Positions 1,980 through 62,403 are shown, counted from the stretch's first letter. The stretch is 64,000 nt of DNA from a virus (IMGVR_UViG_3300050821_005528:1-64000); one strand, 5' to 3'. Numbers and translations are program-made. Notes: generated by a model from the sequence alone, not told the origin.

Positions 1980-2028
1980 GATGATTGCACTTGCCCATCC
2001 ATTGGCTCGGGTCCATGCCTGAATTAAA
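1980..2028 (+). promoter_or_regulatory. bipartite recurrent element, copy 1 (box1 GATGATTGCAC, 27-nt spacer, box2 CCTGAATTAAA)
   Basis: Direct reading. It points toward gene 2126 and lies in the divergent switch region. Confidence 0.6.
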
Positions 2029-2089
2029 TTATGCCTGAATGCGTATCATTCCCCTTATGCCTCCGTCAACAAAATAATCAATCCCCTTA

Positions 2090-2117
2090 TTGACACTGGA
2101 ATAAGTCCAGTTATAGG
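2090..2117 (+). promoter_or_regulatory. sigma70-like promoter TTGACA-N16-TATAGG giving a near-leaderless mRNA for the HTH gene
   Basis: Perfect -35 hexamer. The -10 hexamer ends 8 nt before ATG 2126, and there is no SD between them. Confidence 0.4.
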
Positions 2118-2125
2118 TTGCCTCC

Positions 2126-2365
2126 ATGAACTCGATGGCCCACATCCGCAAAAGCGTCCTAAAGCTTTCGCAGGCTCAGATGGCGGCAATTGCGTGTTGC
2201 ACGCAGGCTCTTGTTTCCTATTGGGAATCCGGCGAACAGTTTCCCAACAAGGAACACATGGGCCGCATTCGGTCATACGCCAAAGCCAGCGGAATCAAAT
2301 GGGACGATTCGTGGTTCTTCGAGGCGCCACCGCAAGAGCCCGCCCCGCAAGCAGAGGCTTCCTGA
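2126..2365 (+). CDS. XRE/Cro-CI-type helix-turn-helix regulator (79 aa)
   Basis: LSQAQMAAIACCTQALVSYWESGEQFP is a typical HTH_3 core. The gene sits just downstream of the repeat-rich intergenic region that separates it from the leftward genes. Confidence 0.75.
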   Translation: MNSMAHIRKSVLKLSQAQMAAIACCTQALVSYWESGEQFPNKEHMGRIRSYAKASGIKWDDSWFFEAPPQEPAPQAEAS

Positions 2366-3492
2366 TGGGCGAGCGGTCCAAAATCGAATGGTGTGATAGC
2401 ACATGGCCCGTCGTTCAAGGCTGCGATCCGGTGTCGCCGGGTTGCACCAATTGCTACGCCGTTCCCCTTGTACATCGCCTTGCGTGGAACACGAACCCAA
2501 AGATATCGGCGCCGATCAAAGGCGTCGTCGAGCATCATAAGGACCGTTTGCGTTTCACCGGCAAGGTGGCGCTTCGCGAAGATCGGATGGATTGGCCGCT
2601 GAAATGGAAAAAAGGCCGCATGATCTTCGTGCCGAGCCATGGTGATCTATTCCACGAAGACGTGCCCGACGCATTCATTGATCGTGTATTCGCCGTGATG
2701 GCGTTGACGTCCCAGCATACTTACCAAGTGCTGACGAAGCGGGCGGAGCGGATGCTCCGCTACATGGAGCATTCCGAGTGCGAGGCCCGATGGATGAATG
2801 CGGTCGCCAATCTCTTCGAAGTCGATCGCACGCTAATGAACAGGTGCTATCCGATCATGAACCGCCGCGAGCCGTGGCTACCGTTGCCCAACGCATGGCT
2901 CGGCGTGTCCGCCGAAGACCAGCAGCGCGCCGACGAACGCATTCCCTTGCTCTTGCAGACTCCGGCGGCGGTGCGGTTCGTGAGCTTGGAGCCGCTGTTG
3001 GGGCCGATTGATCTCAGTGTATGGCCCAGGCGAGATTGGCTTCGGACCACCGGGTATGATGGGGCTGCGACCCAGCCGGGCCTCGACTGGGTGATCGTCG
3101 GTGGCGAATCCGGCCCCGGCCCGCATGCGCGGCCGATGCATCCCGACTGGGCAAGGTCGCTGCGCGATCAATGCGCGGCTGCTGATGTGCCCTACTTCTT
3201 CAAACAATGGGGCGAGTTTTTACCTGTCGGCCAGCACTTGCCCGGATTTGGCAAAATCCATGGCGCAACGGTGGTCAAGCCCGGCCGCATGAAGCTCCAC
3301 TACGGCGGAACGCCGAAGCAAACCCCGCAGCACGCGTTCGCTGAAAATGGCGTCGCGTTCACATCTATAGCCGACGGGCGCCTGACCTTTCGCGTCGGAA
3401 AGCGCGCCGCCGGCCGCTTGCTTGACGGCAGAGAGTGGAACGGGATGCCAGAGGGCAATGTCGTGAAACTAGCCGGAACGCGCGCCGGATAA
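2365..3492 (+). CDS. DUF5131 (phage Gp37/Gp68 family) three-Cys protein
   Basis: N-terminus SKIEWCDSTWPVVQGCDPVSPGCTNCYA is the family hallmark. Start set at ATG 2365, overlapping the previous stop (TGATG). The ORF-track 5' extension was rejected. Confidence 0.85.
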   Translation: MGERSKIEWCDSTWPVVQGCDPVSPGCTNCYAVPLVHRLAWNTNPKISAPIKGVVEHHKDRLRFTGKVALREDRMDWPLKWKKGRMIFVPSHGDLFHEDVPDAFIDRVFAVMALTSQHTYQVLTKRAERMLRYMEHSECEARWMNAVANLFEVDRTLMNRCYPIMNRREPWLPLPNAWLGVSAEDQQRADERIPLLLQTPAAVRFVSLEPLLGPIDLSVWPRRDWLRTTGYDGAATQPGLDWVIVGGESGPGPHARPMHPDWARSLRDQCAAADVPYFFKQWGEFLPVGQHLPGFGKIHGATVVKPGRMKLHYGGTPKQTPQHAFAENGVAFTSIADGRLTFRVGKRAAGRLLDGREWNGMPEGNVVKLAGTRAG

Positions 3493-3533
3493 GCGCATGT
3501 TTCACGGGGAACAATCGCTAAAAGGCGTTTTGA

Positions 3534-5374: not shown

Positions 5375-5844
5375 AGGCCCTCACCATCTACCAGCCTTGG
5401 GCCTCCCTGATCATGATCGGGGCGAAACCCAACGAATTCCGCCGCTGGGACTATCGCACCCGCGAGCGCGGCCTTGAGGGGCAACGCATCGTCATCCACG
5501 CCAGCGCGCGCCCCATTCGTCTGGCCGAAATAGAAGACATCACAGCCCGCTTGAACGACGGCATTTCTGCGCTGCGCGGCGACATCGCGTTACCGCTGCT
5601 TGAGCGCATCAGGGCGGCGTGCGAGAGCGGCGGCGTGGTGGAGCTCTCTGCCGGACTTGGCACCGCTGTTCTGGGAGAGCCCAAGAAGGTCGATGAGTTG
5701 TTCAACTCCCCGGCCGATTCCGATCGCATCGACCATGATATGTGGGCGTGGCCGCTCACCGACATCCAGCCGTTTGCCGCGCCAGTGCCATGCCGTGGTA
5801 TGCAAGGATTCTGGTCGTGGCCGATGAAGGCAGAGGCGGCGTAA
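5371..5844 (+). CDS. ASCH/PUA-like domain protein
   Basis: N-terminus MKALTIYQPWASLIMIGAKPNEFRRW is typical of the ASCH fold. ATGA overlap. Confidence 0.65.
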   Translation: MKALTIYQPWASLIMIGAKPNEFRRWDYRTRERGLEGQRIVIHASARPIRLAEIEDITARLNDGISALRGDIALPLLERIRAACESGGVVELSAGLGTAVLGEPKKVDELFNSPADSDRIDHDMWAWPLTDIQPFAAPVPCRGMQGFWSWPMKAEAA

Positions 5845-6044: not shown

Positions 6045-6379
6045 GCGACACAGCAACAGCAATCCCCTTCAAACTCGTGCAGGAGCAGGATCACGGCGAA
6101 GGCTGGGAATCGGCCGTTGTCGAGATATTCGGCCACCGCACGCATGCCGGCTTCATCCGCGAGGAAGAGCGATTCGGTGCAAAGATGATCCGCATCGATG
6201 TGCCGACGAATGGCGATATCGATCATCCGGTTTGGGAAACGCATTGGTACGGCGGGGCGTCGATCTTCTCGCTTACGCTGACGGACGCGGCGAGCGTATT
6301 TGCAGCAAACAAAGTCCAGCGGGCGCCAGCTCGGGTATTCCTACCGTCGCCGGATGATTATGAGGACGAAGACCAGTGA
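6041..6379 (+). CDS. hypothetical protein (112 aa)
   Basis: ATGA overlap and good codon bias. No domain recognised. Confidence 0.6.
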   Translation: MSDTATAIPFKLVQEQDHGEGWESAVVEIFGHRTHAGFIREEERFGAKMIRIDVPTNGDIDHPVWETHWYGGASIFSLTLTDAASVFAANKVQRAPARVFLPSPDDYEDEDQ

Positions 6380-6816
6380 CCGCCGACTCCCGCATGAATC
6401 TCAATCTCGCCGACATGCGCCTTGAACTCACGCCATCAAGCGCGCCGCTGGGCTACCTCGCGACGCCCTATACGCGCTATCCTCGCGGCATCTGGCACGC
6501 CTTCGTCGACGCATCAACGCTCGCCGCAAGGCTGCTGGCGGCTGGCGTGAAGGTATATAGCCCGATTGCGCACACGCATCCGCTTGCGATCTTCGGCGCC
6601 CTTGATCCGCTTGACCTCAAGATATGGCTTCCATTCGATGAAGCCATGATGACGGCGGCGCATGTTCTTATCATCGGCCAGCTCGACGGCTGGGACACAT
6701 CGAAGGGCGTCGCGCATGAGATCGAGTTCTTCGAACGGCACGGAAAGCCGATCTTCGATCTTGATCCGGCGAGCTTGGTGATGACGAGGCGACGGCTAAA
6801 TGATGAACGCACATAA
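6376..6816 (+). CDS. DUF1937-like / nucleoside 2-deoxyribosyltransferase-like fold protein
   Basis: GYLATPYTRY...VYSPIAHTH...GWDTSKGVAHEIEFF follows the pattern I associate with DUF1937. GTGA overlap. Confidence 0.55.
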   Translation: MTADSRMNLNLADMRLELTPSSAPLGYLATPYTRYPRGIWHAFVDASTLAARLLAAGVKVYSPIAHTHPLAIFGALDPLDLKIWLPFDEAMMTAAHVLIIGQLDGWDTSKGVAHEIEFFERHGKPIFDLDPASLVMTRRRLNDERT

Positions 6817-6839
6817 CCCCGAACCTCTCCTGAATTGAA
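6802..6839 (+). promoter_or_regulatory. bipartite recurrent element, copy 2 (GATGAACGCAC, 16-nt spacer ATAACCCCGAACCTCT, CCTGAATTGAA)
   Basis: Direct reading. It overlaps the stop of 6376-6816 and ends 9 nt before ATG 6848. It encodes the mini-ORF MNAHNPEPLLN (6803-6838). Confidence 0.65.
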
Positions 6840-8201: not shown

Positions 8202-8659
8202 AGTACTCCACAAAGAAGATGAGCGATAGACAGTTAGCCGGCAATCGCAAAATCCTCAATATGACGGGTGGTCGCTGCTACTATTGCGCCTTCCCGCTCC
8301 ACTTGGAAAATCCTCGTGATTGGATGATCATAGGCGTCTGCCGAGATTTTGTACGGGAACACAAATTGCCACGGCAGCGGGGTGGCGAGAACCATCACAG
8401 CAATTACGTTCCGTCCTGTTGGAACTGCAATGGGATAAAATCAACATTCACTCTCGACGAATTTCGATTTTTACGGGGGCTTAGGTGCGGCGATCTTTCA
8501 TTCACCTTTCCATTTGAACAACCAAACACCGCCGGCCGCGACTGGCTTATCGTTCATAGCGAAAGTTTCGAAAAGACGTTGATCCTAAAAAACTTTCCAT
8601 TGGCGCGGTCTCGTTATCATTCGCGCGATGGATTTGTGTCATCGCATGGGCGCCGCTAG
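8198..8659 (+). CDS. HNH endonuclease
   Basis: CYYC...EHKLPRQRGGENHHSNYVPSCWNCNGIKS matches an HNH motif with flanking Cys pairs. Lower-GC island. GTGA overlap. Confidence 0.8.
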   Translation: MKYSTKKMSDRQLAGNRKILNMTGGRCYYCAFPLHLENPRDWMIIGVCRDFVREHKLPRQRGGENHHSNYVPSCWNCNGIKSTFTLDEFRFLRGLRCGDLSFTFPFEQPNTAGRDWLIVHSESFEKTLILKNFPLARSRYHSRDGFVSSHGRR

Positions 8660-9684
8660 TGACATCTCGTCCCACCAACATCATCAGGCGCCATCACACG
8701 CGTTTCTTTACGACGCTACCAAATGAAATTTTCAATGACGAGCGTCTGGCGCTGGACGAAATGGCGTTGCTGGGGTGGCTTCTTAGCCGCCCCCATGACT
8801 GGGAGGTAATCCCAGCCCAAATTCGCAAGCGGTTTAAGGTGGGCCGCGACAAGTTCTACCGGCTCATGACGAGCCTTTGTAACGCCGGCTATGTGAAGCG
8901 AGAGAAGGAACGCGCGAAAGACGGGACGATCTCCTGCATCCGCTATGTCGTAACCGATGATCCGGCCATTCCGGTGAGGCGGGTAACGCAGGAAGAAGTC
9001 GATTCCGAGTCCGATAGCGAGTCTGACAATCCCGCGGTGCCGAGTGCGAGTGTGGCGCCCTTACAACAGCCTGAAAAACCGGATACGGCTGATCCGGATA
9101 CGGTTTTTCAGGGGCCAGGACTAAGTAATGATATATACAAAACTCCCCCCTACCCCCCATTGGAACCTATGGCGAATCCGCAAGGCGCCGTCGAAGCAGT
9201 AAGAAAGATTCCAGAATTCAAGGAATTGTTGAGCAAGTGGCCGTCCGGAAGCATTCTCAGCAGCTCGGCAGCGGAGCGCCGATTTCTGCGCCTTGATGCC
9301 GATCGTAAGGCCGCCGCTGTGAACGGCATCGCGGGCTATCTGGCGGGCATGCGGCTTCGTGGTTGGAAGGTCTGTGATCTGCAAACCTATTTGCGTGATC
9401 GCCGATGGGAAAAAGTTGGGGGAAACACCGAGAAGGTGGCTTACCTGACCAAAGGCGGCACGCCTCAGGCGTTTCGGTGGCTTGAATATCGCAAGGGGCT
9501 CGGAGAACCGACCGCCTTCATGGAGGATTGTTGGAAATCGGGTCGCCCCTGGTACGCGCCTTCCGAGTGGCCGCCTCCGGTTCCGAACGATGATCGCAAG
9601 GGAGAGCCCGTGGAACGCCATCCCCCTCCTGAAAATAACCCCGATCTTTCCCCTCTCGCCGACGAACTGGAACGCACCAAATGA
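8659..9684 (+). CDS. winged-HTH replication-initiator-like protein
   Basis: N-terminus FTTLPNEIFNDERLALDEMALLGWLLSRPHDWEV...FYRLMTSLCNAGYV is typical of phage and plasmid initiator wHTH domains. A low-complexity linker is encoded by the ori-like palindrome. Confidence 0.55.
   Translation: MTSRPTNIIRRHHTRFFTTLPNEIFNDERLALDEMALLGWLLSRPHDWEVIPAQIRKRFKVGRDKFYRLMTSLCNAGYVKREKERAKDGTISCIRYVVTDDPAIPVRRVTQEEVDSESDSESDNPAVPSASVAPLQQPEKPDTADPDTVFQGPGLSNDIYKTPPYPPLEPMANPQGAVEAVRKIPEFKELLSKWPSGSILSSSAAERRFLRLDADRKAAAVNGIAGYLAGMRLRGWKVCDLQTYLRDRRWEKVGGNTEKVAYLTKGGTPQAFRWLEYRKGLGEPTAFMEDCWKSGRPWYAPSEWPPPVPNDDRKGEPVERHPPPENNPDLSPLADELERTK
9070..9145. other. candidate replication origin: palindrome with two direct 10-mers, followed by an AT-rich tract
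   Basis: The sequence is CCTGAAAAA-CCGGATACGG-CTGAT-CCGGATACGG-TTTTTCAGG (9070-9112; the outer 12-mers are perfect inverted repeats). It is followed by CTAAGTAATGATATATACAAAACT. It lies inside the linker of the initiator-like gene, a lambda O/ori-like arrangement. Confidence 0.4.
9589..9638 (+). promoter_or_regulatory. bipartite recurrent element, copy 3, degenerate (GATGATCGCAA, 28-nt spacer, CCTGAAAATAA)
   Basis: Direct reading. It lies inside the 3' end of 8659-9684, 69 nt upstream of 9707 and the packaging module. Confidence 0.35.
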
Positions 9685-10034: not shown

Positions 10035-10694
10035 ATGGAATCGGTCGCGTTGGTGCCCGTGGATGTCGGATCGGAGCCGCTTGCTGGGAAGCTTGAGCGG
10101 TTTGCGCAGATGCTCGCGCTGCGCCTTCCGCCCGATGCGGCAGCGCGCGAGGCCCAATACCCGGCATCAGGTGAGCCGGTCACATTCGCGGCGAATGCCC
10201 GAAAGCGTGCACGGCTTGCGTCAGTGCGTAGCCGAGTTAAGTGGCTGGCGCGGCAGGAAGAAGAGGTTCTGGCGGTCAAGCGCGAACGGCTGGAAGAGCG
10301 GCTGTGGGCTTGGCACGAGAGCGATATCGGGGCGTTCTATCACATGGTTGATGAGATTGTGTTTGACGCCGATGGCATGCCGATTCTCGGCGCCGATGGT
10401 GAGCCAAAAACCCGCACGGTTGAGCGGTTGAAGCTTTTCAGCGAAATGCCGCCTGAGCAGCGCTTGCTCGTCAAATCGCTGCGTTACACCGAGCGCGGCA
10501 AGCCTAACTTGGAGCTTTACGGCGCCGACGACGCAAACCGCGAACTGCGCAAGCTGAACGGTCTTGATGTCCAGCGCACGGCTGGCGAGGCCAACTTCGA
10601 TCGCATGTCGGACGCCCAGATTTTCCACGAACTGGCGCGGCAGGCAAGCGAGCTGGGGGTGAACGTCACGCTGTCGATTGATGGAGGCGCGTAG
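10035..10694 (+). CDS. terS: terminase small subunit
   Basis: Positioned directly upstream of and overlapping terL. It has a helical N-terminus and a C-terminal part (LKLFSEMPPEQRLLVKSLRYTERGKPNLELYGADDANRELRKLNG) like Terminase_2-type small subunits. Confidence 0.65.
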   Translation: MESVALVPVDVGSEPLAGKLERFAQMLALRLPPDAAAREAQYPASGEPVTFAANARKRARLASVRSRVKWLARQEEEVLAVKRERLEERLWAWHESDIGAFYHMVDEIVFDADGMPILGADGEPKTRTVERLKLFSEMPPEQRLLVKSLRYTERGKPNLELYGADDANRELRKLNGLDVQRTAGEANFDRMSDAQIFHELARQASELGVNVTLSIDGGA

Positions 10695-12444
10695 CGTGCT
10701 TTCGCGCCGCTCCCTCGGGCAATTGCTGGCCGGCGTCGCGGCGCTTGCGATGTCGGGTGAAGCCGCGCCTGCGCGTGAAAAGCTCGAAAGGCTGCGGCGC
10801 ACGGCTGCGGAAGCATTACGCCGCATTGCTCGCGACGAGCAATCGCGTTATGGTTGGTATGATGAGAACGGTGTCCGCCAGGGTGGATTGATCGCCTTCG
10901 TGCGGTATTTCTGGCACGTGCTGGAACCCGAGACGCCGTTTGTCGATGGCTGGCCGCTGTGGGTGATGTGCGAGCACCTTGAGGGCGTCACGCGTGGGGA
11001 AATCACGCATTTGTTGGTCAACGTCCCGCCTGGCTTCATGAAGTCGTTGCTGGTGGATGTGTTCTGGCCGGCGTGGGAGTGGGGGCCGATGGACCTGGCG
11101 CATCTGCGGTATGTGGCGTTTTCGTATTCCGCATCCCTGACGGAACGCGACAACGGCCGCTTTCGCGACCTGATCACCAGCCCGGGATATGTCGCGCTGT
11201 ATAAGGGCGTTCGGCCTCGCAACAAGACCACGCTCAAGGTTCACAATACGCGCACGGGTTGGAAGCTCGCTTCGTCGGTCGGCGGCGTGGGCACCGGCGA
11301 GCGCGGCGACCGCATCATTCTCGATGACCCCCACAACGTGAAGGAAGCCGAATCTGATACCGTGCGCGAGGAAACCGTGCGGTGGTTTCGCGAGTCGCTG
11401 TCGTCGCGCTTCAACAACGAGAACACGGCATTCATCGTCATCATGCAGCGCGTCCACGAAGACGACGTGTCCGGTGTGATTCTCAGTGCGGGCCTCGGCT
11501 ATTGTCACGTTTGCATACCGTGGGAATACGAGTATGGCCGCTGCGTCGATGCGAAAGGCGATCCGGTGCCTAACAGCTTTGGGTGGGTCGATCCACGCCT
11601 CGCGCCGCTCGCGCCAGATGAATGCGAAGGTCTTCCTGCCTGGGAAGCGCGTTTCCCCCCCAAGGTGATCGATATGCTGCGCCACGCCCTCGGGCCTTAC
11701 GCCTGGGCTGGGCAATACCAGCAGGCGCCGAGCCCGCGCGGCGGCGGTATCTTCCAGCGCGATTGGTGGCAGTTATGGGAATCCGATGACGGCAAGTTCC
11801 CGACGCTCGAATATGTGGTCGCATCGCTCGATGGCGCTTTCACCGAGGACGAAGAGAACGATCCGTCAGCCCTGACCGTATGGGGGGTGTTCATCAATGA
11901 CCAGAACCGCCGCCGCGTCATTCTTCTGCATGCGTGGCGCAAGTTCTTGAAGTTCTCCGGGCCGCGAATCGCCATGGAGGGCGGTGAAACGAAGGCCGCC
12001 TATCGTCGGCGTTGCATGCCGGAATGGGGCCTGATCGAGTGGACCGCCGATACGTGTCGCCGCTTCAAGGTCGATCTGCTCCTGATCGAGGGCAAGGCGT
12101 CTGGTATGAGTGCCGCCGATGAATTGCGCGGCCGGTACGGGTTTGAAGGATGGGGCATTCACATCATGCCTGTCAAAGGGGATAAGGTAGCGCGTGCCCT
12201 TGCGGTACAGCCAATATTTTCCCAATTTACGGTCTATGCGCCGGATCGCGACTGGGCCGAAATGGTGATCGACGAGATGGCGGTATTTCCGAAAGGGAAA
12301 TATGATGACCTGACCGACTCGGCCACTCAAGCTATGGGGTATCTGCGTGGCGTGGGGATGGTGCAAAGCGATGAGGAGGCTGCGGCGGCTGAAATCGAGC
12401 CGGCCGTTCACAAGCCGCGCCAGCGGGCGCTTTATCCGGTGTAG
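10681..12444 (+). CDS. terL: terminase large subunit
   Basis: Walker A-like VNVPPGFMKS, Walker B IILDDPHN and coupling motif VIMQRVHEDD. The C-terminal nuclease half has ASLDGAF...DPSAL and DDLTDSATQAM. Confidence 0.9.
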   Translation: MEARSVLSRRSLGQLLAGVAALAMSGEAAPAREKLERLRRTAAEALRRIARDEQSRYGWYDENGVRQGGLIAFVRYFWHVLEPETPFVDGWPLWVMCEHLEGVTRGEITHLLVNVPPGFMKSLLVDVFWPAWEWGPMDLAHLRYVAFSYSASLTERDNGRFRDLITSPGYVALYKGVRPRNKTTLKVHNTRTGWKLASSVGGVGTGERGDRIILDDPHNVKEAESDTVREETVRWFRESLSSRFNNENTAFIVIMQRVHEDDVSGVILSAGLGYCHVCIPWEYEYGRCVDAKGDPVPNSFGWVDPRLAPLAPDECEGLPAWEARFPPKVIDMLRHALGPYAWAGQYQQAPSPRGGGIFQRDWWQLWESDDGKFPTLEYVVASLDGAFTEDEENDPSALTVWGVFINDQNRRRVILLHAWRKFLKFSGPRIAMEGGETKAAYRRRCMPEWGLIEWTADTCRRFKVDLLLIEGKASGMSAADELRGRYGFEGWGIHIMPVKGDKVARALAVQPIFSQFTVYAPDRDWAEMVIDEMAVFPKGKYDDLTDSATQAMGYLRGVGMVQSDEEAAAAEIEPAVHKPRQRALYPV

Positions 12445-24893: not shown

Positions 24894-24912
24894 GATTTAT
24901 TCACATCGCCCC

Positions 24913-46892: not shown

Positions 46893-46895
46893 GGT

Positions 46896-47890: not shown

Positions 47891-47897
47891 GGTGCCC

Positions 47898-51124: not shown

Positions 51125-51148
51125 GTTCTATGATAGGCGAACCCACCC

Positions 51149-51185
51149 GATGATCGCACGTAACCCCAAATCTCTCCTGAATTGG
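51149..51185 (+). promoter_or_regulatory. bipartite recurrent element, copy 7 (GATGATCGCAC, 16-nt spacer GTAACCCCAAATCTCT, CCTGAATTGG)
   Basis: The box1 ATG is the start codon of CDS 51150. Box2 reads TGG where other copies read TGA, so translation continues. Confidence 0.65.
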
Positions 51186-51554
51186 CTCTATCTTCTCGCC
51201 GCCTCCATCCTCATCTTCTATGGGGCAACCCGAGCCTTCGCCTTCGACAACGGCCAATATGGTGATGTCCCCGACAATATCCGTTCATGGTTCAAGGGCG
51301 TTCATTCGCCCAACGGAGTCCCTTGCTGTGATATAGCCGACGGCCACCGCACCACTTGGGAAAAGCATCCCGGCGATGACCGTTACTGGGTTCCGATCGA
51401 AACCGAATGGTTTCCCGTGCCATCCGAAGCCGTCATCCACAACGCCGGCAATCCGACCGGAGAGGCCGTCGTCTGGTACGTCATGAAGGATGCGACGGCG
51501 CCGTTTCCGGGGAAATATCACATCCGGTGCTTTGTGCCCGGAGAGGGAGTTTAA
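51150..51554 (+). CDS. secreted protein (134 aa)
   Basis: Signal-peptide-like LLNWLYLLAASILIFYGATRAFA followed by FDNG. Contains a CC pair. Confidence 0.6.
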   Translation: MIARNPKSLLNWLYLLAASILIFYGATRAFAFDNGQYGDVPDNIRSWFKGVHSPNGVPCCDIADGHRTTWEKHPGDDRYWVPIETEWFPVPSEAVIHNAGNPTGEAVVWYVMKDATAPFPGKYHIRCFVPGEGV

Positions 51555-51556
51555 TT

Positions 51557-52240
51557 ATGCTTCAACCCGTGATGTTCGATTGCAACCACGACAACGCCAT
51601 CGATTGGGACGCGGTAGCGACCTGGGCCTGGGGATGTTCGCTCAAGGTGAACCAGGGACTCGGGATGACCGACCACACCTTCGCGTCGCGCCGCGCCGAG
51701 GCCGAGAAGCGCGGCATCATGGTCGGCGGCTACGACTTCTCGACCGACGATAACGTGGCCGCGAATGTGGCGCGCTATCTAGGCCTCCTCAATCCCGGCC
51801 CGACGACGCAAGCCGATTTGGACTTCGAAGACCTGACGCACCACGCCATGTCGGGCGACCATGCATACGAATGGCTCGATCGCGTCAACCAGAAGATGGG
51901 GCGCGCGGCCACGCTCTACGGCGGCAACCGCATCCGCGAGCACATTCGCTCCCAGGATAAGAAATGGATTGATATGGCGGCCGTCACGCCGCTGTGGCTG
52001 TGTCAGTACAAGGACGTTCAGGTAGACACGCTGGACGAGCTGGACCGGCACATCAGCGTGCCGCCACCGTGGAAGCGCTGGACCTATCTGCAGTACGCGG
52101 CGGACGGCGCTGGTCCCGCTCCGCACAAGATGCCGGGCGTCGAAAACAAGGCGGACCTGAACGTGTACCGGGGCGACCGCGCGACGTTCGCGGCGGGGTG
52201 GCCCGGGGCGTCGCTGCCAGCGCCGGAGGCGGTCGCGTGA
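51557..52240 (+). CDS. GH25-family lysozyme (muramidase) endolysin
   Basis: FDCNHDNAIDWDAV...KVNQGLGMTDHTF...GIMVGGYDF...LWLCQYKD...WTYLQYAADG...ADLNVYRG follows the GH25 pattern (DxS..qg.idw, KateG, GaYhf, WlaqY, WqYs, DlN.f). Confidence 0.8.
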   Translation: MLQPVMFDCNHDNAIDWDAVATWAWGCSLKVNQGLGMTDHTFASRRAEAEKRGIMVGGYDFSTDDNVAANVARYLGLLNPGPTTQADLDFEDLTHHAMSGDHAYEWLDRVNQKMGRAATLYGGNRIREHIRSQDKKWIDMAAVTPLWLCQYKDVQVDTLDELDRHISVPPPWKRWTYLQYAADGAGPAPHKMPGVENKADLNVYRGDRATFAAGWPGASLPAPEAVA

Positions 52241-52264: not shown

Positions 52265-52285
52265 ATAGACACTGATGAGGCCGTG

Positions 52286-52558
52286 ATGTTTTTTAGACTG
52301 ATCGGCGCTGCGGCGCTCGCCCTGGCACTCATAGGAACCGCGTGGACGCAGGGTATCCCCGGCGGGGGCGGCCCCGGCATACCAACGGCGAACTTTTGTT
52401 TCTTGTTTTTCAATCCCGGGATTCCGGGATGCCCTGGACCTGGCATGCCAGGCGTTAACCCCAACCCGGGACCGCCGCCGACCAACTGTTCGCCCGTTAA
52501 TGGTCTCGATTACACCAAGGCGTGCGATGTGGTCTACCATATGGGGATTTTTCAATGA
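52286..52558 (+). CDS. small secreted Gly/Pro-rich protein, tandem paralogue A
   Basis: Signal peptide, and C-terminus CSPVNGLDYTKACDVVYHMGIFQ. Confidence 0.55.
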   Translation: MFFRLIGAAALALALIGTAWTQGIPGGGGPGIPTANFCFLFFNPGIPGCPGPGMPGVNPNPGPPPTNCSPVNGLDYTKACDVVYHMGIFQ

Positions 52559-52773
52559 GGGTGCTTTTAGCCGCCATCCTTGTGCTTGCCGCCTCTGAAG
52601 CTTCACCGCAAACAACTTTGCTCGGAAATTGCGGTTCCGATATCACGGGAATACAGTTGAGCACGGGGAACGTCTACTGCGTCGCACCGCCGCCAGGAGC
52701 GTGCTCTCCTGTCGATGGCCTTGACTACACCAAAGCATGCGATATCGTTTATCACACGGGGATTTTTCAATGA
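52555..52773 (+). CDS. small secreted protein, tandem paralogue B
   Basis: MRVLLAAILVLAASEA, and C-terminus CSPVDGLDYTKACDIVYHTGIFQ. ATGA overlap. Confidence 0.55.
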   Translation: MRVLLAAILVLAASEASPQTTLLGNCGSDITGIQLSTGNVYCVAPPPGACSPVDGLDYTKACDIVYHTGIFQ

Positions 52774-53006
52774 GGATAATTCTGCTTGGTACTGCTATGC
52801 TCTTCTCGACGGCTGTTTACTGCGCTGATGTCGTCGTGGTGTTCGATGAACCGTTGCAGCGCGATATGATCGCCGTTCTGAATGCGGCCAAAGCTCAAGG
52901 ACTCGACCTTGCGGCTCCAGTCGGGCGCGTGTGGGAAAAACTCAAAGCCGCACCTGTGCTCAAACCCGATCCGCCGCCGCCCGCTCCATCGGAGAAACCA
53001 CAATGA
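52770..53006 (+). CDS. small secreted protein (78 aa)
   Basis: MRIILLGTAMLFSTAVYCADV. ATGA overlap. Pro-rich C-terminus. Confidence 0.5.
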   Translation: MRIILLGTAMLFSTAVYCADVVVVFDEPLQRDMIAVLNAAKAQGLDLAAPVGRVWEKLKAAPVLKPDPPPPAPSEKPQ

Positions 53007-54253
53007 AGAAACTTATCGCAGGACTTGCGCTCTCGCTGCTGGCAACAGCCGCATTCGCGGGTGCCGGGACCATAACGGTGCTCGACAGTACTGGCGCAAC
53101 CAAAACATACGATGTCATCACGGACGGATCGGGCAATTTCCTGTCCAAGATGGGCATCTGCGATGGAGCGGCGGGGGCCACTTGCGCTTCGGTTGGTACG
53201 GCAGGGTCCCCCTCCACCAACGCTCTCACGGTGCAAGCGGTGACGCTGGGGCACGGCACGGCCGCCAATGCGATGCGGGTGGAGCTGCCCACGGACGGGA
53301 CGGGCGTTGTTACGGCGGCCCAAGCGACCGCTGCCAATCTCAATGCGACGGTGGTCGGCACCGGCACATTCGCCACGCAATCGACTTTGGCGGCCGAAAC
53401 GACAAAGAACATCGGAACTATTCGCGCCACCGGCAACGTTGGCGGCGTCTTCGATGCGATCGTGGCTGGCACCTATCCGGCGAACGCGCTTGCTGTTGGC
53501 GTGCTCAACGGCAGCGCCATCGGCCGGCTGGTAGGCGACGAAACCAACGGCCTGTGGGTCAACATCAAGGCCGGTGCGGGTTCGGGCGGTACGGCGCTTG
53601 CTGACGAGGCCACGTTCACGCAGGGTACAACCAACTTCACCCCGGCCGGTTGCACCTTCAACAATTCGATCACGAACCTGACGAGCGGCCAGGGTGGCGC
53701 ATTCTCCTGCACAGCGGCCCGCTCGTTGCACACGACGGTCGATAACACCAACGCCAACGGCCAAGCCGCGATGGCGAACAGTTCGCCTGTCGTGATCGCG
53801 AGCAATCAATCAAATATTCCTACGAATACGGCTCAAATTAATGGCGTCACACCGTTGATGGGAAATGGCGTTAGCGGTACTGGATCGCAGCGCGTCAACA
53901 TCGCTTCCGATAATACCGCATTTCCAGTCAACGCAACCGGCCCCGTGAACGTAACAGCTACAGCGTGTTCTGGGACGATCACGAGCGGCGGCACCGCACA
54001 GAATGCTTTCACCGCGCAAACGACTTTGCACGGCTTCACGGTCGCCAACATCGACACAACCGAACCGCTATGGATTTCGTTTACTACTACCGCTGCGGCG
54101 AGCGGCACGGATAGCTACCCTCTCCCAGCCGCAACCGCGACAACCTTCGCGGGTTTTGGCTCGTTCACGACGCCGCCTGGGTTAGGACTTAACCACGCAC
54201 TATCCGTCATTGCGGCGACAACCTCACACAAGTATAGCTGTACATGGTGGTGA
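53003..54253 (+). CDS. secreted Thr/Ala/Gly/Asn-rich beta-rich protein (416 aa)
   Basis: Textbook Sec signal MKKLIAGLALSLLATAAFA followed by GAG. ATGA overlap. Confidence 0.7.
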   Translation: MKKLIAGLALSLLATAAFAGAGTITVLDSTGATKTYDVITDGSGNFLSKMGICDGAAGATCASVGTAGSPSTNALTVQAVTLGHGTAANAMRVELPTDGTGVVTAAQATAANLNATVVGTGTFATQSTLAAETTKNIGTIRATGNVGGVFDAIVAGTYPANALAVGVLNGSAIGRLVGDETNGLWVNIKAGAGSGGTALADEATFTQGTTNFTPAGCTFNNSITNLTSGQGGAFSCTAARSLHTTVDNTNANGQAAMANSSPVVIASNQSNIPTNTAQINGVTPLMGNGVSGTGSQRVNIASDNTAFPVNATGPVNVTATACSGTITSGGTAQNAFTAQTTLHGFTVANIDTTEPLWISFTTTAAASGTDSYPLPAATATTFAGFGSFTTPPGLGLNHALSVIAATTSHKYSCTWW

Positions 54254-54257
54254 GAAA

Positions 54258-54752
54258 ATGCCCAAAAATAATAGATGGTTTCCTATTGGAGCGGTGCTGC
54301 TACTTCTTTCTTTCCTGCATCCGCTCTACGCGCAATGGGGTGGGGGCGGCGGTGGAACGGTAAATAACAGTAGCACCGCCGCTAGCACCAATCGCGCGCT
54401 ATGCTCGATCCGCGCCGCCAATTTCAACATTACCACCGATCAGGCCTGCGTCATCCCCGGCACCGTCACCGCCTGGGTTCCGACCTCGATCATAGTCACC
54501 AATTGCTCCGGGAGCTTCACGCTTGCTGCCGGTGGCGTCTATCCGGCTGCCAGTAAGGGCGGCACGGCGCTGGTGGCCGCCGGCCAAGTCTACACGGCGC
54601 TGAGCGGATCAACCGTGGTGCTGGGGCTCACGCTCGCGGCCAACATCGCGACGACGCGGCAGACAGCGGGTACAGTTTACCTGTCGCTGACGACTGGGAC
54701 GGGATCGGCGGCAACCTGCGATTTCTATGTATGGGGAAACGACCTGACATGA
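54258..54752 (+). CDS. secreted protein (164 aa)
   Basis: Signal FPIGAVLLLLSFLHPLYA followed by QW. Gly run. Confidence 0.6.
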   Translation: MPKNNRWFPIGAVLLLLSFLHPLYAQWGGGGGGTVNNSSTAASTNRALCSIRAANFNITTDQACVIPGTVTAWVPTSIIVTNCSGSFTLAAGGVYPAASKGGTALVAAGQVYTALSGSTVVLGLTLAANIATTRQTAGTVYLSLTTGTGSAATCDFYVWGNDLT

Positions 54753-55924
54753 AGCGCTTTCTTATTGCGGTAGCATTGCTATTGATAGCAGGTGAGGCGC
54801 CCGCGCAGTTTAATGGGTGTTCGGCTGGGTTCTGTGCGCCGGTTGTTAGCGGCGGCGGAAGCTGCACCATCAACAGCGTCAGTTTGGGCGGCAATACCTT
54901 CACGGGTGGCGCATCCAGCGGAACGGTTGTCGGAGCCATCACGGTCAGCACAAGCGGTACATGCGGCACCGACACTCTGAGCGTCACAGGCACGAATGCC
55001 AGTGATTTTCAGATTAGCGGGACCAATCTCGAAACCAATGGCGTGGTAGCGGGCGGAAGCTATAGCATTAATATTGTCGCGACAATATCCGGGGCAACGG
55101 GGTCGCCGTTCACGCAGGCGGAAGTAATTTGCGGTGCTGGTAGTCATGCGGCAACCTTTATCGCCCGCACCAGCGGCATGAGCAATACCGAGACGACGGC
55201 CTACTGCAATTTGATCAACGGCCTTGACACCGATAGTACCTACGCTCTGTTCGATGCGCTATATATATTCGCAACAAATACCACAACCACGGCCGATCTC
55301 AACCTCGTCAGCACCAATTTTACGCTCACTTCGCACGGCAGTTGCACATTTACCGCTGATCACGGATATACCGGCGACGGTTCTTCTTGCTATCTTGATA
55401 CCGGGCTTGATCCGCAATCATGTACAGGAGTGACATGTAATTTCGCCAACACAACCGCAATGCATGGCGTTTATGTGCTTACCAATAGCACTTCGACGCC
55501 AGGCGCGCCCGAAATTGACATTGGAGCAGTGAATGACTCCACAGTGTTCAACTATATTCTTCCTATATTTACTGATGGTAAAAGTTACTGCTCAATAAAT
55601 AGCACTTCAAACAACGGGCCTGTCACGGTCGGGAACACTGACGGCTCGTGGATGTGCGTCGGTAATTCGACCAATAGCGTGTTTTATAGAAACGGGTCGT
55701 CTATTGGTTCTGGCACGGCAAGTGCCGGTGCGGTTCCAAACGTCAATTATTACATCTTGGCAAGAAATGATTCCGGCTCCGGTGGTGGGAGTTCTCCTGC
55801 TGAATTTTCGCCTCATCAACTATCCGCAGCGTGGATTGGGCAGATGCCAAATAGCACGCAGGCGGCTAATATCCAATCTCGCATTAATACGTTCATGACT
55901 TCGCAAGGTATCAATACATATTGA
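54749..55924 (+). CDS. secreted Cys-containing protein (391 aa), possible lectin/LamG-like C-terminal half
   Basis: Signal MKRFLIAVALLLIAGEAPA followed by QF. ATGA overlap. Lower-GC 3' half. Confidence 0.65.
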   Translation: MKRFLIAVALLLIAGEAPAQFNGCSAGFCAPVVSGGGSCTINSVSLGGNTFTGGASSGTVVGAITVSTSGTCGTDTLSVTGTNASDFQISGTNLETNGVVAGGSYSINIVATISGATGSPFTQAEVICGAGSHAATFIARTSGMSNTETTAYCNLINGLDTDSTYALFDALYIFATNTTTTADLNLVSTNFTLTSHGSCTFTADHGYTGDGSSCYLDTGLDPQSCTGVTCNFANTTAMHGVYVLTNSTSTPGAPEIDIGAVNDSTVFNYILPIFTDGKSYCSINSTSNNGPVTVGNTDGSWMCVGNSTNSVFYRNGSSIGSGTASAGAVPNVNYYILARNDSGSGGGSSPAEFSPHQLSAAWIGQMPNSTQAANIQSRINTFMTSQGINTY

Positions 55925-55937
55925 CAGGGGGATTCTA

Positions 55938-56468
55938 ATGTTCAACCGTATCCTCATTAGCCTCGGCCTCTCGCTCATGCTGGTTCTGTCGCCTCTCGCG
56001 GCGACACAGAAATGGGTTGCCGGCGCACTCACGGGCTACAGCACGACGGTTTGCGGGGCCGAACTCAATTCCCTCGCGAACGGCGACTCGGTCCTGTGCG
56101 GCACTGCCGTCACGACCAACACCGATCTGTACGGCACCGCGTCGTTCACGTTCGGCTCCGTCACCACGATGGGCGGTTCGCCCTATGTGCAACTCGCGAT
56201 CTATCAACTTAACCAGGACGGCAGCACGTATGGAGATGGCACCTTTGCGTCTGCGGCTGCCGGCAGCCCCGCCGCTCAGTATCTCGTCAACTGCATCATT
56301 CCTGCGCCGGCAAGCGCCACGGCGGCGTTCAAGGGCGAGTGCGGCCCGTTCCCGCTGCCGCCGGGCACGTTCAAGTTCGTGCTCTATGATAACCTAAACA
56401 CCACTGGAAATGCCGCTTCCAGCGGCAACGCCGTCTATCTCAACACATGGAATTTCCAGATCAATTGA
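55938..56468 (+). CDS. secreted protein (176 aa)
   Basis: Signal MFNRILISLGLSLMLVLSPLAA followed by TQ. Confidence 0.6.
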   Translation: MFNRILISLGLSLMLVLSPLAATQKWVAGALTGYSTTVCGAELNSLANGDSVLCGTAVTTNTDLYGTASFTFGSVTTMGGSPYVQLAIYQLNQDGSTYGDGTFASAAAGSPAAQYLVNCIIPAPASATAAFKGECGPFPLPPGTFKFVLYDNLNTTGNAASSGNAVYLNTWNFQIN

Positions 56469-56475
56469 GGTCGTC

Positions 56476-57543
56476 ATGCTCAAATTCCTGACTGTCCTCT
56501 GGGTATTGCTTGCGCCGCTGCCGGCATGGTCGCAGGCCATGTTCGCGCCGTTCATGGCTGCAAGCAGCGCAAGCAACTCGGTCACGGGTGCGATCCCGTC
56601 AGCGCCCGCCGCATTTTATGGGCAAATCAAGCCGACCGGGCCGATCGAGCTTAATCGGCAATCCCCGTTCGCGCCACTGGTCTCGATGTACGACCGCGGC
56701 GACGGCGTTTACATCAATGGTGCTTACGGGAATGCGGCCGACAATGGGCCGACTTTCGCGACCTATAGCGGCGGCGCTTCGACCAGCGCGGGTTTTATTC
56801 AAGGCGTCAACAGCACGCCGCGTGGCACAGCCGGATTGTGGCCTGGGGCGAGCATCACCAATGGGTTCTCCGGCAATGGGCTCGGCGCTTGGATCGTCAC
56901 CGGGGTGGACACCGGAGGCGGCGTTCAGACCGGGCTCGATATCAACGCTGCAAGCAATCTGACGGCGCTCGCGGCCGGGGCCGGATACTCGGTTGCGGTC
57001 CAGGTCTATCGCGTTCCCGGCACCATATCGGCCGATTTCGAATGGTACGGCGGCCGCACTTGGATATCCAACGGGGAGGGGTGGGAACAAGCCAATTCCT
57101 GCGCGGCTCCCGGCGTGATGTGGGGGTTCGTGGAGAACGCCGGTTGTGGCGCTTCGGGAAATTATGTCGTCGGCGCCTATGTTGTCACGGGCACCGTCGC
57201 ATCGCCCACGCAAAAAACACTGGGCTCATTTACGATTGCCCCGAATGCCTATTACGAACTCGGCATTGATTGCGTCAACACCAGCAGCGGCAGCGCTTCC
57301 TGCGAATGGCTTATCAACTCCGCGGTTCAGAGTTGCAGCAGTTGCACCGGCCTGTCGCTGCCGTCCACGACCAATACCGGAGAGACGTGGATAGAGGCCG
57401 GCGCAACGCGGCATGCTAGCGGACTGAGCAATCACACCTGTTACTGCTATGTCTACAAGATCGATTTTTATTCGCGCAAGCTTTCTCTGAGCGAGTGGTC
57501 GTTCCGCTGGAATAACCCGTGGAGCATGTACAAGCCGAAGTGA
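56476..57543 (+). CDS. secreted protein (355 aa), possible concanavalin/LamG-like fold
   Basis: Signal MLKFLTVLWVLLAPLPAWS followed by QA. Confidence 0.65.
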   Translation: MLKFLTVLWVLLAPLPAWSQAMFAPFMAASSASNSVTGAIPSAPAAFYGQIKPTGPIELNRQSPFAPLVSMYDRGDGVYINGAYGNAADNGPTFATYSGGASTSAGFIQGVNSTPRGTAGLWPGASITNGFSGNGLGAWIVTGVDTGGGVQTGLDINAASNLTALAAGAGYSVAVQVYRVPGTISADFEWYGGRTWISNGEGWEQANSCAAPGVMWGFVENAGCGASGNYVVGAYVVTGTVASPTQKTLGSFTIAPNAYYELGIDCVNTSSGSASCEWLINSAVQSCSSCTGLSLPSTTNTGETWIEAGATRHASGLSNHTCYCYVYKIDFYSRKLSLSEWSFRWNNPWSMYKPK

Positions 57544-60505: not shown

Positions 60506-60619
60506 ATGGGTCTGATCCTTCTTGTTATCGTTGTTCTCGTCCTGTTCGGCATAGGACACTTTGGTGCAGCGACCGGCCGACCGATGATCGCACATAACCC
60601 CGGCTCTCTCCTGAATTGA
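60506..60619 (+). CDS. 37-aa single-TM peptide ending in the recurrent-element mini-ORF
   Basis: MGLILLVIVVLVLFGIGHFGAATGRPMIAHNPGSLLN. Confidence 0.35.
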   Translation: MGLILLVIVVLVLFGIGHFGAATGRPMIAHNPGSLLN

Positions 60620-60620
60620 A
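60583..60620 (+). promoter_or_regulatory. bipartite recurrent element, copy 8 (GATGATCGCAC, 16-nt spacer ATAACCCCGGCTCTCT, CCTGAATTGAA)
   Basis: Ends 11 nt before ATG 60631. Confidence 0.65.
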
Positions 60621-60630
60621 AGAACTTCTC

Positions 60631-61302
60631 ATGAAACTATTCCCCATCCTCACCGCGCTTCTACTTACCGCCACGGCAGCACAAGCGCAGAATCCGCGAC
60701 CACGCCCCGAAGCCGCGCCACGCTTCGATCATACCGACGAGCCACGCGAGGGCGCGGTGGGCTTGACGCCCCTCATCTGCGATCCGCTCAATCTGCTCCC
60801 TGGCTGCAAGAGCCCCGTCACAGGCCAAACCGTCACGTCCGATGCCAGCAAGGCCATCACCCAGGTATTCACGAGCCTCGCCGCATTCATCGATCAGGGC
60901 GTGGTGGAAGCCGAACAGCTTGCCATGGCGATTCCCGATCTGCCCGATGGCGTGGGCCAACAGTGCTGGATGCAGATGCGCAAGACATCAGCCGTGTTCA
61001 AGGCACATCCGGTGCCGGTCACGCTCCAACTACCGCTCGATCTCCAGGCGATCCGCCTGTTGGTGATGTCGGCCAACGACCTGTGCGCCAGCTCGGCGTG
61101 CACGCAGCTTTTCTCGGATGCCGCCAACCTCGCGACCGCAGCGGCTGGCGCCGGGGGGTTTTCGATCCCAATCCCCAGCCTCGCGAGCGTGTGCAGCAAG
61201 ATTCCGGTGATCCGCTCCACCCCGACCGTGGCCGACCCGACGCTCCCGCCGGTTACGCCGGTGCCCGTCGTGCCGGCGCCTGCACCAACGCCGCCTCCGT
61301 AA
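60631..61302 (+). CDS. secreted protein with Pro-rich C-terminus (223 aa)
   Basis: Start moved to ATG 60631. Signal MKLFPILTALLLTATAAQA followed by QN. Confidence 0.6.
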   Translation: MKLFPILTALLLTATAAQAQNPRPRPEAAPRFDHTDEPREGAVGLTPLICDPLNLLPGCKSPVTGQTVTSDASKAITQVFTSLAAFIDQGVVEAEQLAMAIPDLPDGVGQQCWMQMRKTSAVFKAHPVPVTLQLPLDLQAIRLLVMSANDLCASSACTQLFSDAANLATAAAGAGGFSIPIPSLASVCSKIPVIRSTPTVADPTLPPVTPVPVVPAPAPTPPP

Positions 61303-61880
61303 TGGTCAAGCCTGCGTCCATCGTCGCGGCGCTGTGGCTAGCCCTTGCCAGCGCAGCGCCGGCCCAGGCGCCGCCCCCCGCGGTATCGCCTCCGGTACAG
61401 ACCCAGCCATATATCGCTCCGACGCTGCCTGACCTACCGCGAGGGCTCAGTTCGGGCGACCGCGAGCTGATCCTGCTGCTGGTCGCCGAGCGCGACCGAC
61501 AATACAACCAGCGCTTCCATGCCCAGGAGATCGCGGTCGCCGCCGCCCTGGCCGCTGCCAAGGAAGCCGTCGCCGCCGCGCTCACCGCTGCCAAGGAGGC
61601 CGTGGACAAGGCCGCCGCAGCCAACGACAAGCATTTCGACAGTGTAAACGAATTCCGCAAGACCTTGACCGATCAGACAGCTTCATTCCCGACCCGCAAT
61701 GAGGTAGATATCAAGTTCAAGGCGATCGAGGACAAGATCGGTCTCCTCATCACGCGCGACAACCAACTGGCAGGACGCAGCGAAGGATACTCGTCACTGT
61801 GGAACGGGATCATAGCAATCATCGGCGTCTTGATCGGCGGCGGCATGCTGGCGATGGCCTTTCGACAAAGGGGAAAGTGA
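61302..61880 (+). CDS. envelope protein with N-terminal signal, coiled-coil and C-terminal TM anchor
   Basis: ASIVAALWLALASAAPAQA, then an AAALAAAKEAVAAALTAAKEAV repeat, then IIAIIGVLIGGGMLAMAF. Confidence 0.55.
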   Translation: MVKPASIVAALWLALASAAPAQAPPPAVSPPVQTQPYIAPTLPDLPRGLSSGDRELILLLVAERDRQYNQRFHAQEIAVAAALAAAKEAVAAALTAAKEAVDKAAAANDKHFDSVNEFRKTLTDQTASFPTRNEVDIKFKAIEDKIGLLITRDNQLAGRSEGYSSLWNGIIAIIGVLIGGGMLAMAFRQRGK

Positions 61881-61884
61881 TAAG

Positions 61885-62361
61885 ATGCCCAAAGTCTACG
61901 CCGTAATGATCATGGGCCAGGGTGGCTACCTCACTAGCTACGGCGTGGTCCGCATGGCCGCAGCGGCCCGTCAGCTCGGCATCCAGGCCGACGTATTCAC
62001 CTACGGCTCGACCGACGCCATCGCCGCCGCTGTGGACGCACACCGCACCACGGGCTACCTCATCGCCGGCTTGGGCTATTCGCTGGGCGTCTCGGCGCTG
62101 ACCTATGCGCAGCGCACCCGCATGTTCGATCTGGTGCTCTGCGTGGCCGGCAGCAAGCTTGGGCAGAATTACCCGATCAATCACGCCAAGACCACACGTT
62201 CCGTCCTGTGGCGCGGACCTGGCGTGCTGTCGGGCGCTGGCGGCGATCTTGGATTCGACGTGGTGCACGACGTAGCGGGAGCGCCGCACCTGTGGATGGA
62301 TTTTGCGCCGGAAGTGGCAAGTGGCGTAGAATCTGAGTTGAACGCACTTCTTCGGCGATGA
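61885..62361 (+). CDS. small GxSxG (alpha/beta-hydrolase-like) protein
   Basis: YLIAGLGYSLGVSAL is a nucleophile-elbow-like motif. At 158 aa it is short for a full alpha/beta-hydrolase. Confidence 0.45.
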   Translation: MPKVYAVMIMGQGGYLTSYGVVRMAAAARQLGIQADVFTYGSTDAIAAAVDAHRTTGYLIAGLGYSLGVSALTYAQRTRMFDLVLCVAGSKLGQNYPINHAKTTRSVLWRGPGVLSGAGGDLGFDVVHDVAGAPHLWMDFAPEVASGVESELNALLRR

Positions 62362-62403
62362 TGGCAAGGGAGAACGATATGGCAATCCCTCTCCTGAATT
62401 GAA
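62357..62403 (+). promoter_or_regulatory. bipartite recurrent element, copy 9 (GATGATGGCAA, 25-nt spacer, CCTGAATTGAA)
   Basis: Box1 overlaps the stop of 61885-62361. Mini-ORF MMARENDMAIPLLN (62358-62402). Confidence 0.6.

Follow-up and report, generated by a model that had tools for sequence, protein, structure and literature searches.

The Mor- and C-dependent promoters of phage Mu and the MotA-dependent middle promoters of phage T4 are used by the host RNA polymerase together with a small phage protein, which reads an upstream box at the -35 region or just upstream of it; the core of these promoters is poor, but they keep a recognisable sigma-70 -10 hexamer. In the podophages phiEco32 and 7-11, lineage-specific promoter motifs occurring six to eight times per genome have been mapped experimentally; the motif is tAATGTAtA in phiEco32 and GTAAtg-N16-aCTA, in eight copies, in phage 7-11 (PMC8948821). 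Among other repeated phage elements, the stoperator of Cluster A mycobacteriophages is a single contiguous 13-bp site for a monomeric two-domain repressor (PMC9283540). The start-associated sequence (SAS) of Cluster K mycobacteriophages lies 3-7 bp from the start codon and has a Shine-Dalgarno core, and the extended SAS (ESAS) consists of 17-bp inverted repeats (PMC3203893). Here we describe an element that recurs nine times in a 64,000-nucleotide stretch of viral DNA (IMGVR_UViG_3300050821_005528:1-64000, hereafter the window, with positions counted from its first letter). The element consists of two boxes, box1 and box2, whose spacer comes in two discrete length classes, and it always points towards the next gene.

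The element had been noticed in the sequence before, and the original prediction took it for a set of sites for a phage-encoded regulator (operators, or activator sites of a phage-specific promoter class) or for conserved linkers at module boundaries. From the analysis reported here, it is a functional, directional cis-element of the phage and not a product of chance. Among the options put forward, a phage-specific promoter class with an activator site is the best fit to the geometry, and we consider the chances to be about even that the nine copies are phage-specific promoters, each marking a transcription start site.

A directional two-box element and its conservation

The pattern GATGANNGCA-N15-30-CCTGAA finds exactly the nine copies listed in the original prediction, where 0.02 are expected from 100 shuffles, and the ninefold bipartite element is therefore real. 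When the boxes are counted singly in the window, allowing up to one mismatch, box1 (CGATGATSGCA) has 19 matches vs 6.7 expected, and box2 (CCTGAATTRAA) has 7 vs 1.1 expected. All eight occurrences of CCTGAATT in the window fall inside copies of the element, so that there are no orphan box2 sites. The element spans 38-51 bp and is made of two obligately paired boxes, not of one contiguous site of ~13 bp.

It should be noted that the true start of box1 is one base earlier than first proposed, at 1979, 6801, 9588, 49271, 51148, 60582 and 62356 on the plus strand, the minus-strand boxes ending at 46893 and 51125. Because of this shift, the two spacer classes stand but their lengths had to be corrected: measured between the 11-mers, they are 17 nt in each of copies 2, 7 and 8 (the short class) and 25, 26, 27, 27, 28 and 29 nt in the long class. 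The palindromic form of box1, CGATGATCG, had been attributed to six copies and is present in only five (9588, 46893, 49271, 51148 and 60582); the three short copies do share, as reported, a common spacer sequence, CAC(A/G)TAACCCC. Five window copies contain GATC, and no window copy contains GANTC. The orientation agrees with that of the downstream gene in 9/9 copies and on both strands, as had been claimed, and all nine are located at gene boundaries, though not all are strictly intergenic. A scan of the window with a sequence model of the short class found no further window-type copy; it returned one extra copy of the type of a sister lineage, at 24965-25003 on the minus strand.

In the metagenome scan, only two fragments, L205 and L210, were homologous to the window; L001, L002 and most of the metagenome matches are probably due to chance. 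L205 carries two copies: one, of the short class, agrees with copy 8 at 39/39 positions while its flanks differ at 54 of 135 aligned positions (40%), and the other is divergent and resembles copy 1. In L210, copy 9 is kept with three substitutions, all of them in the spacer. Such copies, identical or altered only in the spacer, the one in L205 lying between flanks that have diverged by 40%, argue that the element is under selection. A further long-class copy, with an identical box1 and with TCCTGAATCAAA as box2, is found in the IMG/VR contig L221, 35 nt upstream of a homologue of the gene at 51150. A scan of species-representative genomes with the bipartite pattern gave, among the matches listed, only single chance ones with no homology to the window, and when the literature was searched for the box sequences as text, only unrelated primers came up.

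The same uncultured SU10-like family includes a second lineage (L128-L131 and another 52 stretches, L231-L282; hereafter lineage 2), which carries a homologous element, NTGACC-N16/17 or N24-28-CTCTCGTGAC(A/C)CAAA, with CTCTCGTGACNCAAA as its second box, in 120 distinct copies. It can be aligned over its full length with the short class of the window, and of the 48 columns, 14 are invariant and 6 nearly so. In the loci fetched through the terminase, which are unbiased for the element, the lineage-2 spacers measure 16-17 (n=13) or 24-27 nt (n=18); among the 120 distinct copies they measure 16-17 or 24-28 nt, with none at 18-23. The gap of ~10 bp between the spacer classes, which had been pointed out for the window, therefore recurs independently in lineage 2, and it fits the placement of both boxes on one and the same DNA face. 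Judging from these alignments, the two-box, two-register architecture is conserved, the registers being ~10 bp apart, while the box sequences have diverged. One gene is preceded by a short-class copy in L130 and by a long-class copy in L131. Conservation at a syntenic junction was found at one place, where copy 4 corresponds to the copy at L131 1539 (minus strand), after an exonuclease-like gene. In the long class of lineage 2, GANTC directly follows box1 (GAGTC, GAATC or GATTC, with a variable middle base), which may point to a connection of the element with methylation.

The comparison with the relatives also bears on the idea that the copies are module-boundary linkers, i.e. patches of homology for mosaic recombination with no regulatory role. 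In its favour, copies do lie at mosaic joints, as the homology of the window with L205 and with L210 starts or stops beside the element; moreover, the short-class copy of L130 and the long-class copy of L131 occupy the same junction, and the sister-lineage-type copy of the window is found beside a capsid gene 92% identical to that of lineage 2. However, linkers would not be expected to keep a strict co-orientation with the genes on both strands, to preserve a two-box architecture in spite of diverged boxes, to come in discrete spacing classes, or to be conserved over a block of just 9-11 nt, and regulatory sites at mosaic joints are known anyway. The location at mosaic joints is thus the part of this proposal that stands; a linker role is not needed to explain the data, and we regard it as very improbable.

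Geometry of a putative promoter family

The register was set by taking the invariant T of the box2 TGA as -7. The short class then shows NTGAYC at -35 to -30, followed by 17 nt and by TCTC(C/G)T at -12 to -7, which, on sequence grounds, is the geometry of sigma-70-family promoters. The gap between the -35 and -10 positions is 17 nt in copies 2, 7 and 8 and 17-18 nt in lineage 2, and in the long class box1 lies ~10 nt farther away. The upstream hexamer of lineage 2 is (G/T)TGACC, TTGACC being the commonest form (63/120 copies), and the ATGATC of the window box1 matches TTGACA at 3/6 positions. Conservation ends 6 nt past the TGA in both lineages, that is, one base beyond the predicted +1, which is an A in 8/9 window copies.

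If the copies are promoters, the host RNA polymerase would read them, probably aided by a phage-encoded DNA-binding protein. Box2 and the bases preceding it, (C)TCTCCTGAATT(A/G)AA, would be the core, from about -13 to +2, with TCTCCT standing where the -10 hexamer would be and the A's at the end of box2 as the start of transcription. Box1, (C)GATGATCG, would act as a -35-like or activator site, located at -35 to -30 in the short class and about one helical turn upstream (~-45) in the long class; it could be bound by sigma region 4 or, more likely, by a small phage activator from about -33 or -43. In the long class, other sequences are found at the -35 position (copies 1 and 5 have TTGCCY there, and copies 3, 6 and 9 have AGGGAGA-like sequences), and for this reason the two classes might be differently regulated promoter types with one common core, perhaps with a temporal meaning.

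The position of the start codons is consistent with such a reading. Lineage-2 start codons lie between 5 and >100 nt after the TGA; the mode of this distance is 5 nt (6 cases), and none is shorter except for one uncertain case of 3 nt. Among the 18 lineage-2 genes that start at most 13 nt from the TGA, none has a Shine-Dalgarno sequence. If the mRNAs started right after box2, leaderless or near-leaderless transcripts would be expected, and this fits both the 5-nt mode and limit and the lack of Shine-Dalgarno sequences in the close genes. In the window, the predicted +1 lies 10-151 nt from the start codon. A different register, that of an extended -10 element (TGn followed by ATTAAA or CACAAA), was rejected, because transcription would then start inside the genes whose ATG comes 5 nt after the TGA.

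A function of the element in the mRNA was considered as well. The element could be an unstructured C/A-rich leader or a translation-initiation signal like SAS/ESAS, possibly with a mini-ORF (open reading frame) from the box1 AUG. The lineage-2 box2 is 5-8 nt from the start codon in 14/82 cases, most leaders have no Shine-Dalgarno sequence, and the box1 AUG is a real start codon in copy 7; in several copies, the ORF that begins at the box1 ATG closes at a stop codon inside box2. In addition, SAS and ESAS are also two-part repeats in one orientation; their spacer is variable, and they are not known to have a function (PMC3203893). However, the distances to the start codon in the window are 10-151 nt vs 3-7 bp for SAS, the element has neither a Shine-Dalgarno core nor a predicted structure, and the frame and length of the mini-ORF are not conserved, and all three substitutions between the window and L210 would be non-synonymous in it. 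A leader-peptide mini-ORF was rejected on the same substitutions and because its frame and stop are not kept in lineage 2, where box1 carries GTG, TTG, ATG or CTG and the frame shifts between spacers 26 and 27; box2 as such has stops in 2/3 frames.

The fold z-scores of the nine copies range from -0.5 to +1.4, so that no copy folds more stably than its shuffled versions, and structure is practically lacking in the short class; Rfam gave no match for the element at gathering score, and no tRNA. Because there is no RNA structure and no Rfam match, a role at the DNA level is favoured. Overall, the mRNA-level role appears decidedly unlikely. Box C/D or K-turn motifs, hammerhead or other ribozymes and nut-like RNA were rejected as well, there being no flanking stems, no significant folds and no Rfam match.

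Several observations weigh against the promoter reading. The -10-like hexamer, TCTCCT or TCTCGT, fits at T-12, T-10 and T-7 but has C and not A at -11; we know of no named consensus that it matches, and a consensus scan found no sigma-70-type site at any copy. To our knowledge, none of the recognition sequences of sigma-54, sigma-28, sigma-32, EcfG, E. coli sigma-E, Caulobacter sigma-73, CtrA, LexA and IHF agrees with the two boxes at their spacing. Scans of the window ORFs (89 with Pfam, 40 of them also with PHROGs; a highly divergent sigma factor could escape such a scan) and of 63 ORFs of one lineage-2 genome detected no domain of a sigma factor, RNA polymerase, GcrA or NusG, and the GcrA-like phage protein that had been suggested as a binder is not supported, as no GcrA domain was detected in the window by Pfam or PHROGs. 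In the long class, the distance between box1 and box2 is too great for contact by sigma region 4. Copy 7 does not fit a simple promoter, because its box1 ATG is the start codon of gene 51150, which a start after box2 cannot express. Finally, in most terminase relatives, the closest ones included, the 10 kb on either side of the terminase lack any such repeat, and the element is therefore not a family-wide requirement.

The overlap of copy 7 with a start codon would be no problem if the copies were sites for a phage repressor or other regulator and not promoters, i.e. operators or stoperator-like road-blocks to elongation, with a two-domain or dimeric protein bound to one face of the DNA. As with stoperators, the sites are many, asymmetric, lineage-specific and located at gene boundaries, and their orientation is that of transcription (PMC9283540). 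Their density in lineage 2, about one per 2-3 kb, is like that in phage L5. Box1 is a partial dyad, CGAT-G-ATCG in the window and CGGT-G-ACCG in 37% of the lineage-2 copies, and the two box1 differences between the lineages are at symmetric positions; moreover, a Cro/CI-like helix-turn-helix (HTH) gene of the window ends in box1 of copy 5. Yet stoperators are single 13-bp sites, whereas the element has two or three blocks over its 38-51 bp; the commoner lineage-2 box1, TTGACC, breaks the dyad; the 35-kb late operon of the window has no copies; and copies 6 and 7 leave just 22 bp for the promoters that would have to be controlled. Repressor sites would also leave unexplained the -35/17 nt/-10 geometry of the short class, the limit of conservation within one base of the predicted +1, and the minimum of 5 nt between the TGA and the start codon (bar one doubtful 3-nt case). 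On this evidence, we consider it unlikely that the copies are repressor sites.

As to the protein that might read box1, two window genes encode candidates, by sequence. The first gene after copy 1 (2126-2365, plus strand) encodes a 79-aa Cro/CI-type HTH-like protein, a candidate binder of box1, and the gene at 48947-49276 (plus strand), whose stop codon lies within box1 of copy 5, encodes a 109-aa Cro/CI-like HTH regulator, a candidate repressor or activator. The scans of the window proteins for the proposed binder gave only two Pfam HTH_3 matches and one weak winged-helix match. A tblastn search for a regulator common to the window and lineage 2 found none, the matches being methyltransferases, DUF5131, the exonuclease module, lysis genes and virion genes.

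It is possible, but in our view rather doubtful, that the element represents a control architecture not described before. This would be either a core with C at -11 that is read by the host polymerase without a recognisable phage sigma factor, combined with an upstream box that works in two registers one helical turn apart, swappable at one gene, and often leaderless mRNAs, or else the first stoperator-like, orientation-dependent immunity outside actinophages. On either reading, a phage protein would have to redirect or block the host polymerase, the host being probably an alphaproteobacterium.

The individual copies and their genome context

The window is a phage genome of 60% G+C. As it is of the size typical of its family, 65-70 kb, the proposal that the whole 64 kb is one co-regulated element is plausible. 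A close cultured relative was not found, the best terminase match being 42%, and the terminase defines a large family, entirely uncultured, whose contigs measure 65-70 kb. The large terminase is encoded at 10678-12444, a portal at 13113-15389 (SU10-type Pfam match, under the curated cut-off) and a replication initiator at 8659-9684; an SU10-type adaptor has a Pfam match, and the window also codes for two DNA methyltransferases, a GH25 endolysin and a Cro/CI-like HTH protein. GANTC is depleted (177 sites in the window vs 312 expected, ~7.7 standard deviations too few), which suggests that the host is an alphaproteobacterium; GATC is slightly above expectation.

Copy 1 (1979-2028, plus strand) belongs to the long class, with box1 CGATGATTGCA at 1979-1989, a spacer of 28 nt and box2 CCTGAATTAAA at 2018-2028. 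It contains an internal TTGCCC 18 nt 5' of the -10-like hexamer, and the predicted +1 is 2027, upstream of the gene at 2126-2365. Copy 2 (6801-6839, plus strand; short class, spacer 17) reads TGATGAACGCA-CACATAACCCC..-CCTGAATTGAA and covers the final 16 nt of gene 6376-6816; its predicted +1 is 6838, and the next gene, at 6848, has no Shine-Dalgarno sequence. Copy 3 (9588-9638, plus strand; long class, spacer 29) has a degenerate box2, CCTGAAAATAA, and lies within the 3' end of the replication-initiator gene; downstream of it are gene 9707, the small terminase, the large terminase and the 35-kb structural operon.

The replication-initiator gene also contains, at 9070-9112, a perfect inverted repeat of 12 nt (CCTGAAAAACCG / CGGTTTTTCAGG) around two CCGGATACGG direct repeats, plausibly an origin of replication. 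The palindrome thus exists as described, but its supposed relation to box2 could not be upheld, because the two have only CCTGAA in common, a sequence that occurs 34 times in the window.

Copy 4 (46847-46893, minus strand; long class, spacer 25) is located between the exonuclease-like gene 47075-47974 and gene 46367-46819. In copy 5 (49271-49319, plus strand; long class, spacer 27), the HTH regulator-like gene 48947-49276 has the TGA of box1 as its stop codon, and an internal TTGCCT is found 17 nt 5' of TCTCCT; the next gene begins at 49344. Copy 6 (51077-51125, minus strand; long class, spacer 27) points at the minus-strand gene 50619-50927, the nearest start on that strand being 50927 and not the one originally given.

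Copy 7 (51148-51186, plus strand; short class, spacer 17), whose box2 ends in TTGG instead of TTGAA, lies back-to-back with copy 6, with 22 bp between the two box1 sequences, an arrangement like that of divergent promoters. It is partly coding, since a real secreted protein of 134 aa (51150-51554), which has signal-peptide homologues in 11 viral contigs, uses the ATG of its box1 (51150) as start codon. What had been taken for one ORF at 51407-52240 is in fact two genes, this one and the endolysin, which starts not at 51407 but at 51557, with its own Shine-Dalgarno sequence. Between copies 6 and 7, at 51128-51136, there is a 9-bp palindrome, CTATGATAG, that reads TATGAT and TATCAT on the two strands, both -10-like, and could be an operator or a promoter for gene 51150. 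Farther downstream, the region 52283-57543 encodes a series of secreted Thr/Ser/Gly-rich proteins, among them small tandem ORFs, with a pair that share the ending ...GLDYTKACD(I/V)VYH(T/M)GIFQ; these proteins may be surface-modifying or receptor-binding.

Copy 8 (60582-60620, plus strand; short class, spacer 17) has its predicted +1 at 60619 and precedes, at 60631, a gene for a protein with a signal peptide. Copy 9 (62356-62403, plus strand) is of the long class, with a spacer of 26 nt, and gene 61885-62361 has the TGA of its box1 as stop codon. The final ~35 residues of the protein encoded by this gene recur in an otherwise unrelated ORF of L210 (600-860), with at least 33 identical residues in the part of L210 that was read. 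The joint, ~130 nt upstream of copy 9, appears from this comparison to be a mosaic breakpoint, or possibly a boundary between prophage and host.

The candidate tenth copy, CTGATC-N17-CTCTCGTGAC at 24965-25003 (minus strand), lies in a 216-bp gap (24893-25110), the largest gap of the structural module. It is antisense to the neighbouring genes, and only a tiny ORF is found downstream of it. Because the capsid gene next to it (25740-26654) shows 92% identity to lineage 2, this copy may be a relic that came with the capsid module in a module exchange.

Other repeats, and a NusG-domain gene, were noted in relatives. In L193 (8300-9870), and also in L190 and L197, all distant relatives, a tandem array of ~45 units with a period of ~36 bp is located just upstream of the terminase; its unit, AGCGTGCCA-N11-AGCAACCCA-N8, or GAGCGAGCCA in L197, is itself a bipartite repeat. 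L162 has overlapping GCGGAATTCC repeats at 5538-5640 that are like the iterons of replication origins. In L203 (NCBI GCA_040383985.1), which lacks the element, a 205-aa protein with a NusG domain is encoded directly upstream of the terminase genes (8559-9176), which suggests that some family members control the late operon by processive antitermination. For the element itself, NusG/ops-type antitermination was rejected, since the relative with the NusG gene has no repeats and the window has no such gene.

Comparison with known phage control systems

If the copies are promoters, they would chart the transcription of a large and entirely uncultured family of SU10-like phages of 65-70 kb, with nine units in the window genome and probably 20 to 30 in the sister genomes, and the boxes, which differ between lineages, would serve as a search handle and as a defined DNA bait for the factor that reads them. 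The two-register design, the switch of class at one gene and the likely leaderless mRNAs would offer testable rules on the tolerance of a 10-bp displacement by a polymerase or regulator. Should the copies be repressor road-blocks instead, immunity of the stoperator type would no longer be confined to mycobacteriophages. The interest of the element lies chiefly in its two-register architecture and in the missing reader protein. Its kind is best described as already known, that of phage-specific promoter or control repeats, and its form as unusual.

Activation of the type seen with Mor, C and MotA would explain a box1 centred near -33 or -43. Unlike the promoters that these proteins activate, however, the element has no sigma-70 -10 hexamer, and no homologue of Mor, C or MotA was detected. 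With the Cluster A stoperators (L5 gp71 type) it shares the presence of many asymmetric copies in short intergenic spaces, an orientation that follows transcription and a lineage-specific consensus (PMC9283540); it differs from them in having two boxes, 17 or 25-29 nt apart, in a promoter-like geometry, and the hosts are unrelated. Like the SAS/ESAS of Cluster K, it is found upstream of a subset of genes and nearly always in one orientation, with a variable spacer and a second upstream part, which in SAS/ESAS differs between subclusters (PMC3203893). Unlike them, it lies in the window at 10-151 nt from the start codon and has neither a GGAG/Shine-Dalgarno core nor inverted repeats.

The lineage-specific promoters of the phiEco32 type are the closest experimentally understood analogue. 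Their starts have been mapped, they have one fixed spacing and they are read by a recognisable phage sigma factor, whereas the window element is known from its sequence, has two registers (17 and ~27) and box sequences unrelated to theirs, and no such factor was detected in the window. In both cases, nevertheless, a short lineage-specific motif is repeated (~6-8 times in the 70-77 kb genomes of the phiEco32 type) upstream of gene clusters and in their orientation, and the motif of phage 7-11 is bipartite too, with a spacer of ~16 nt. The window also shares SU10-type virion proteins with the phiEco32/7-11 group, clearly for the adaptor and below the Pfam cut-off for the portal.

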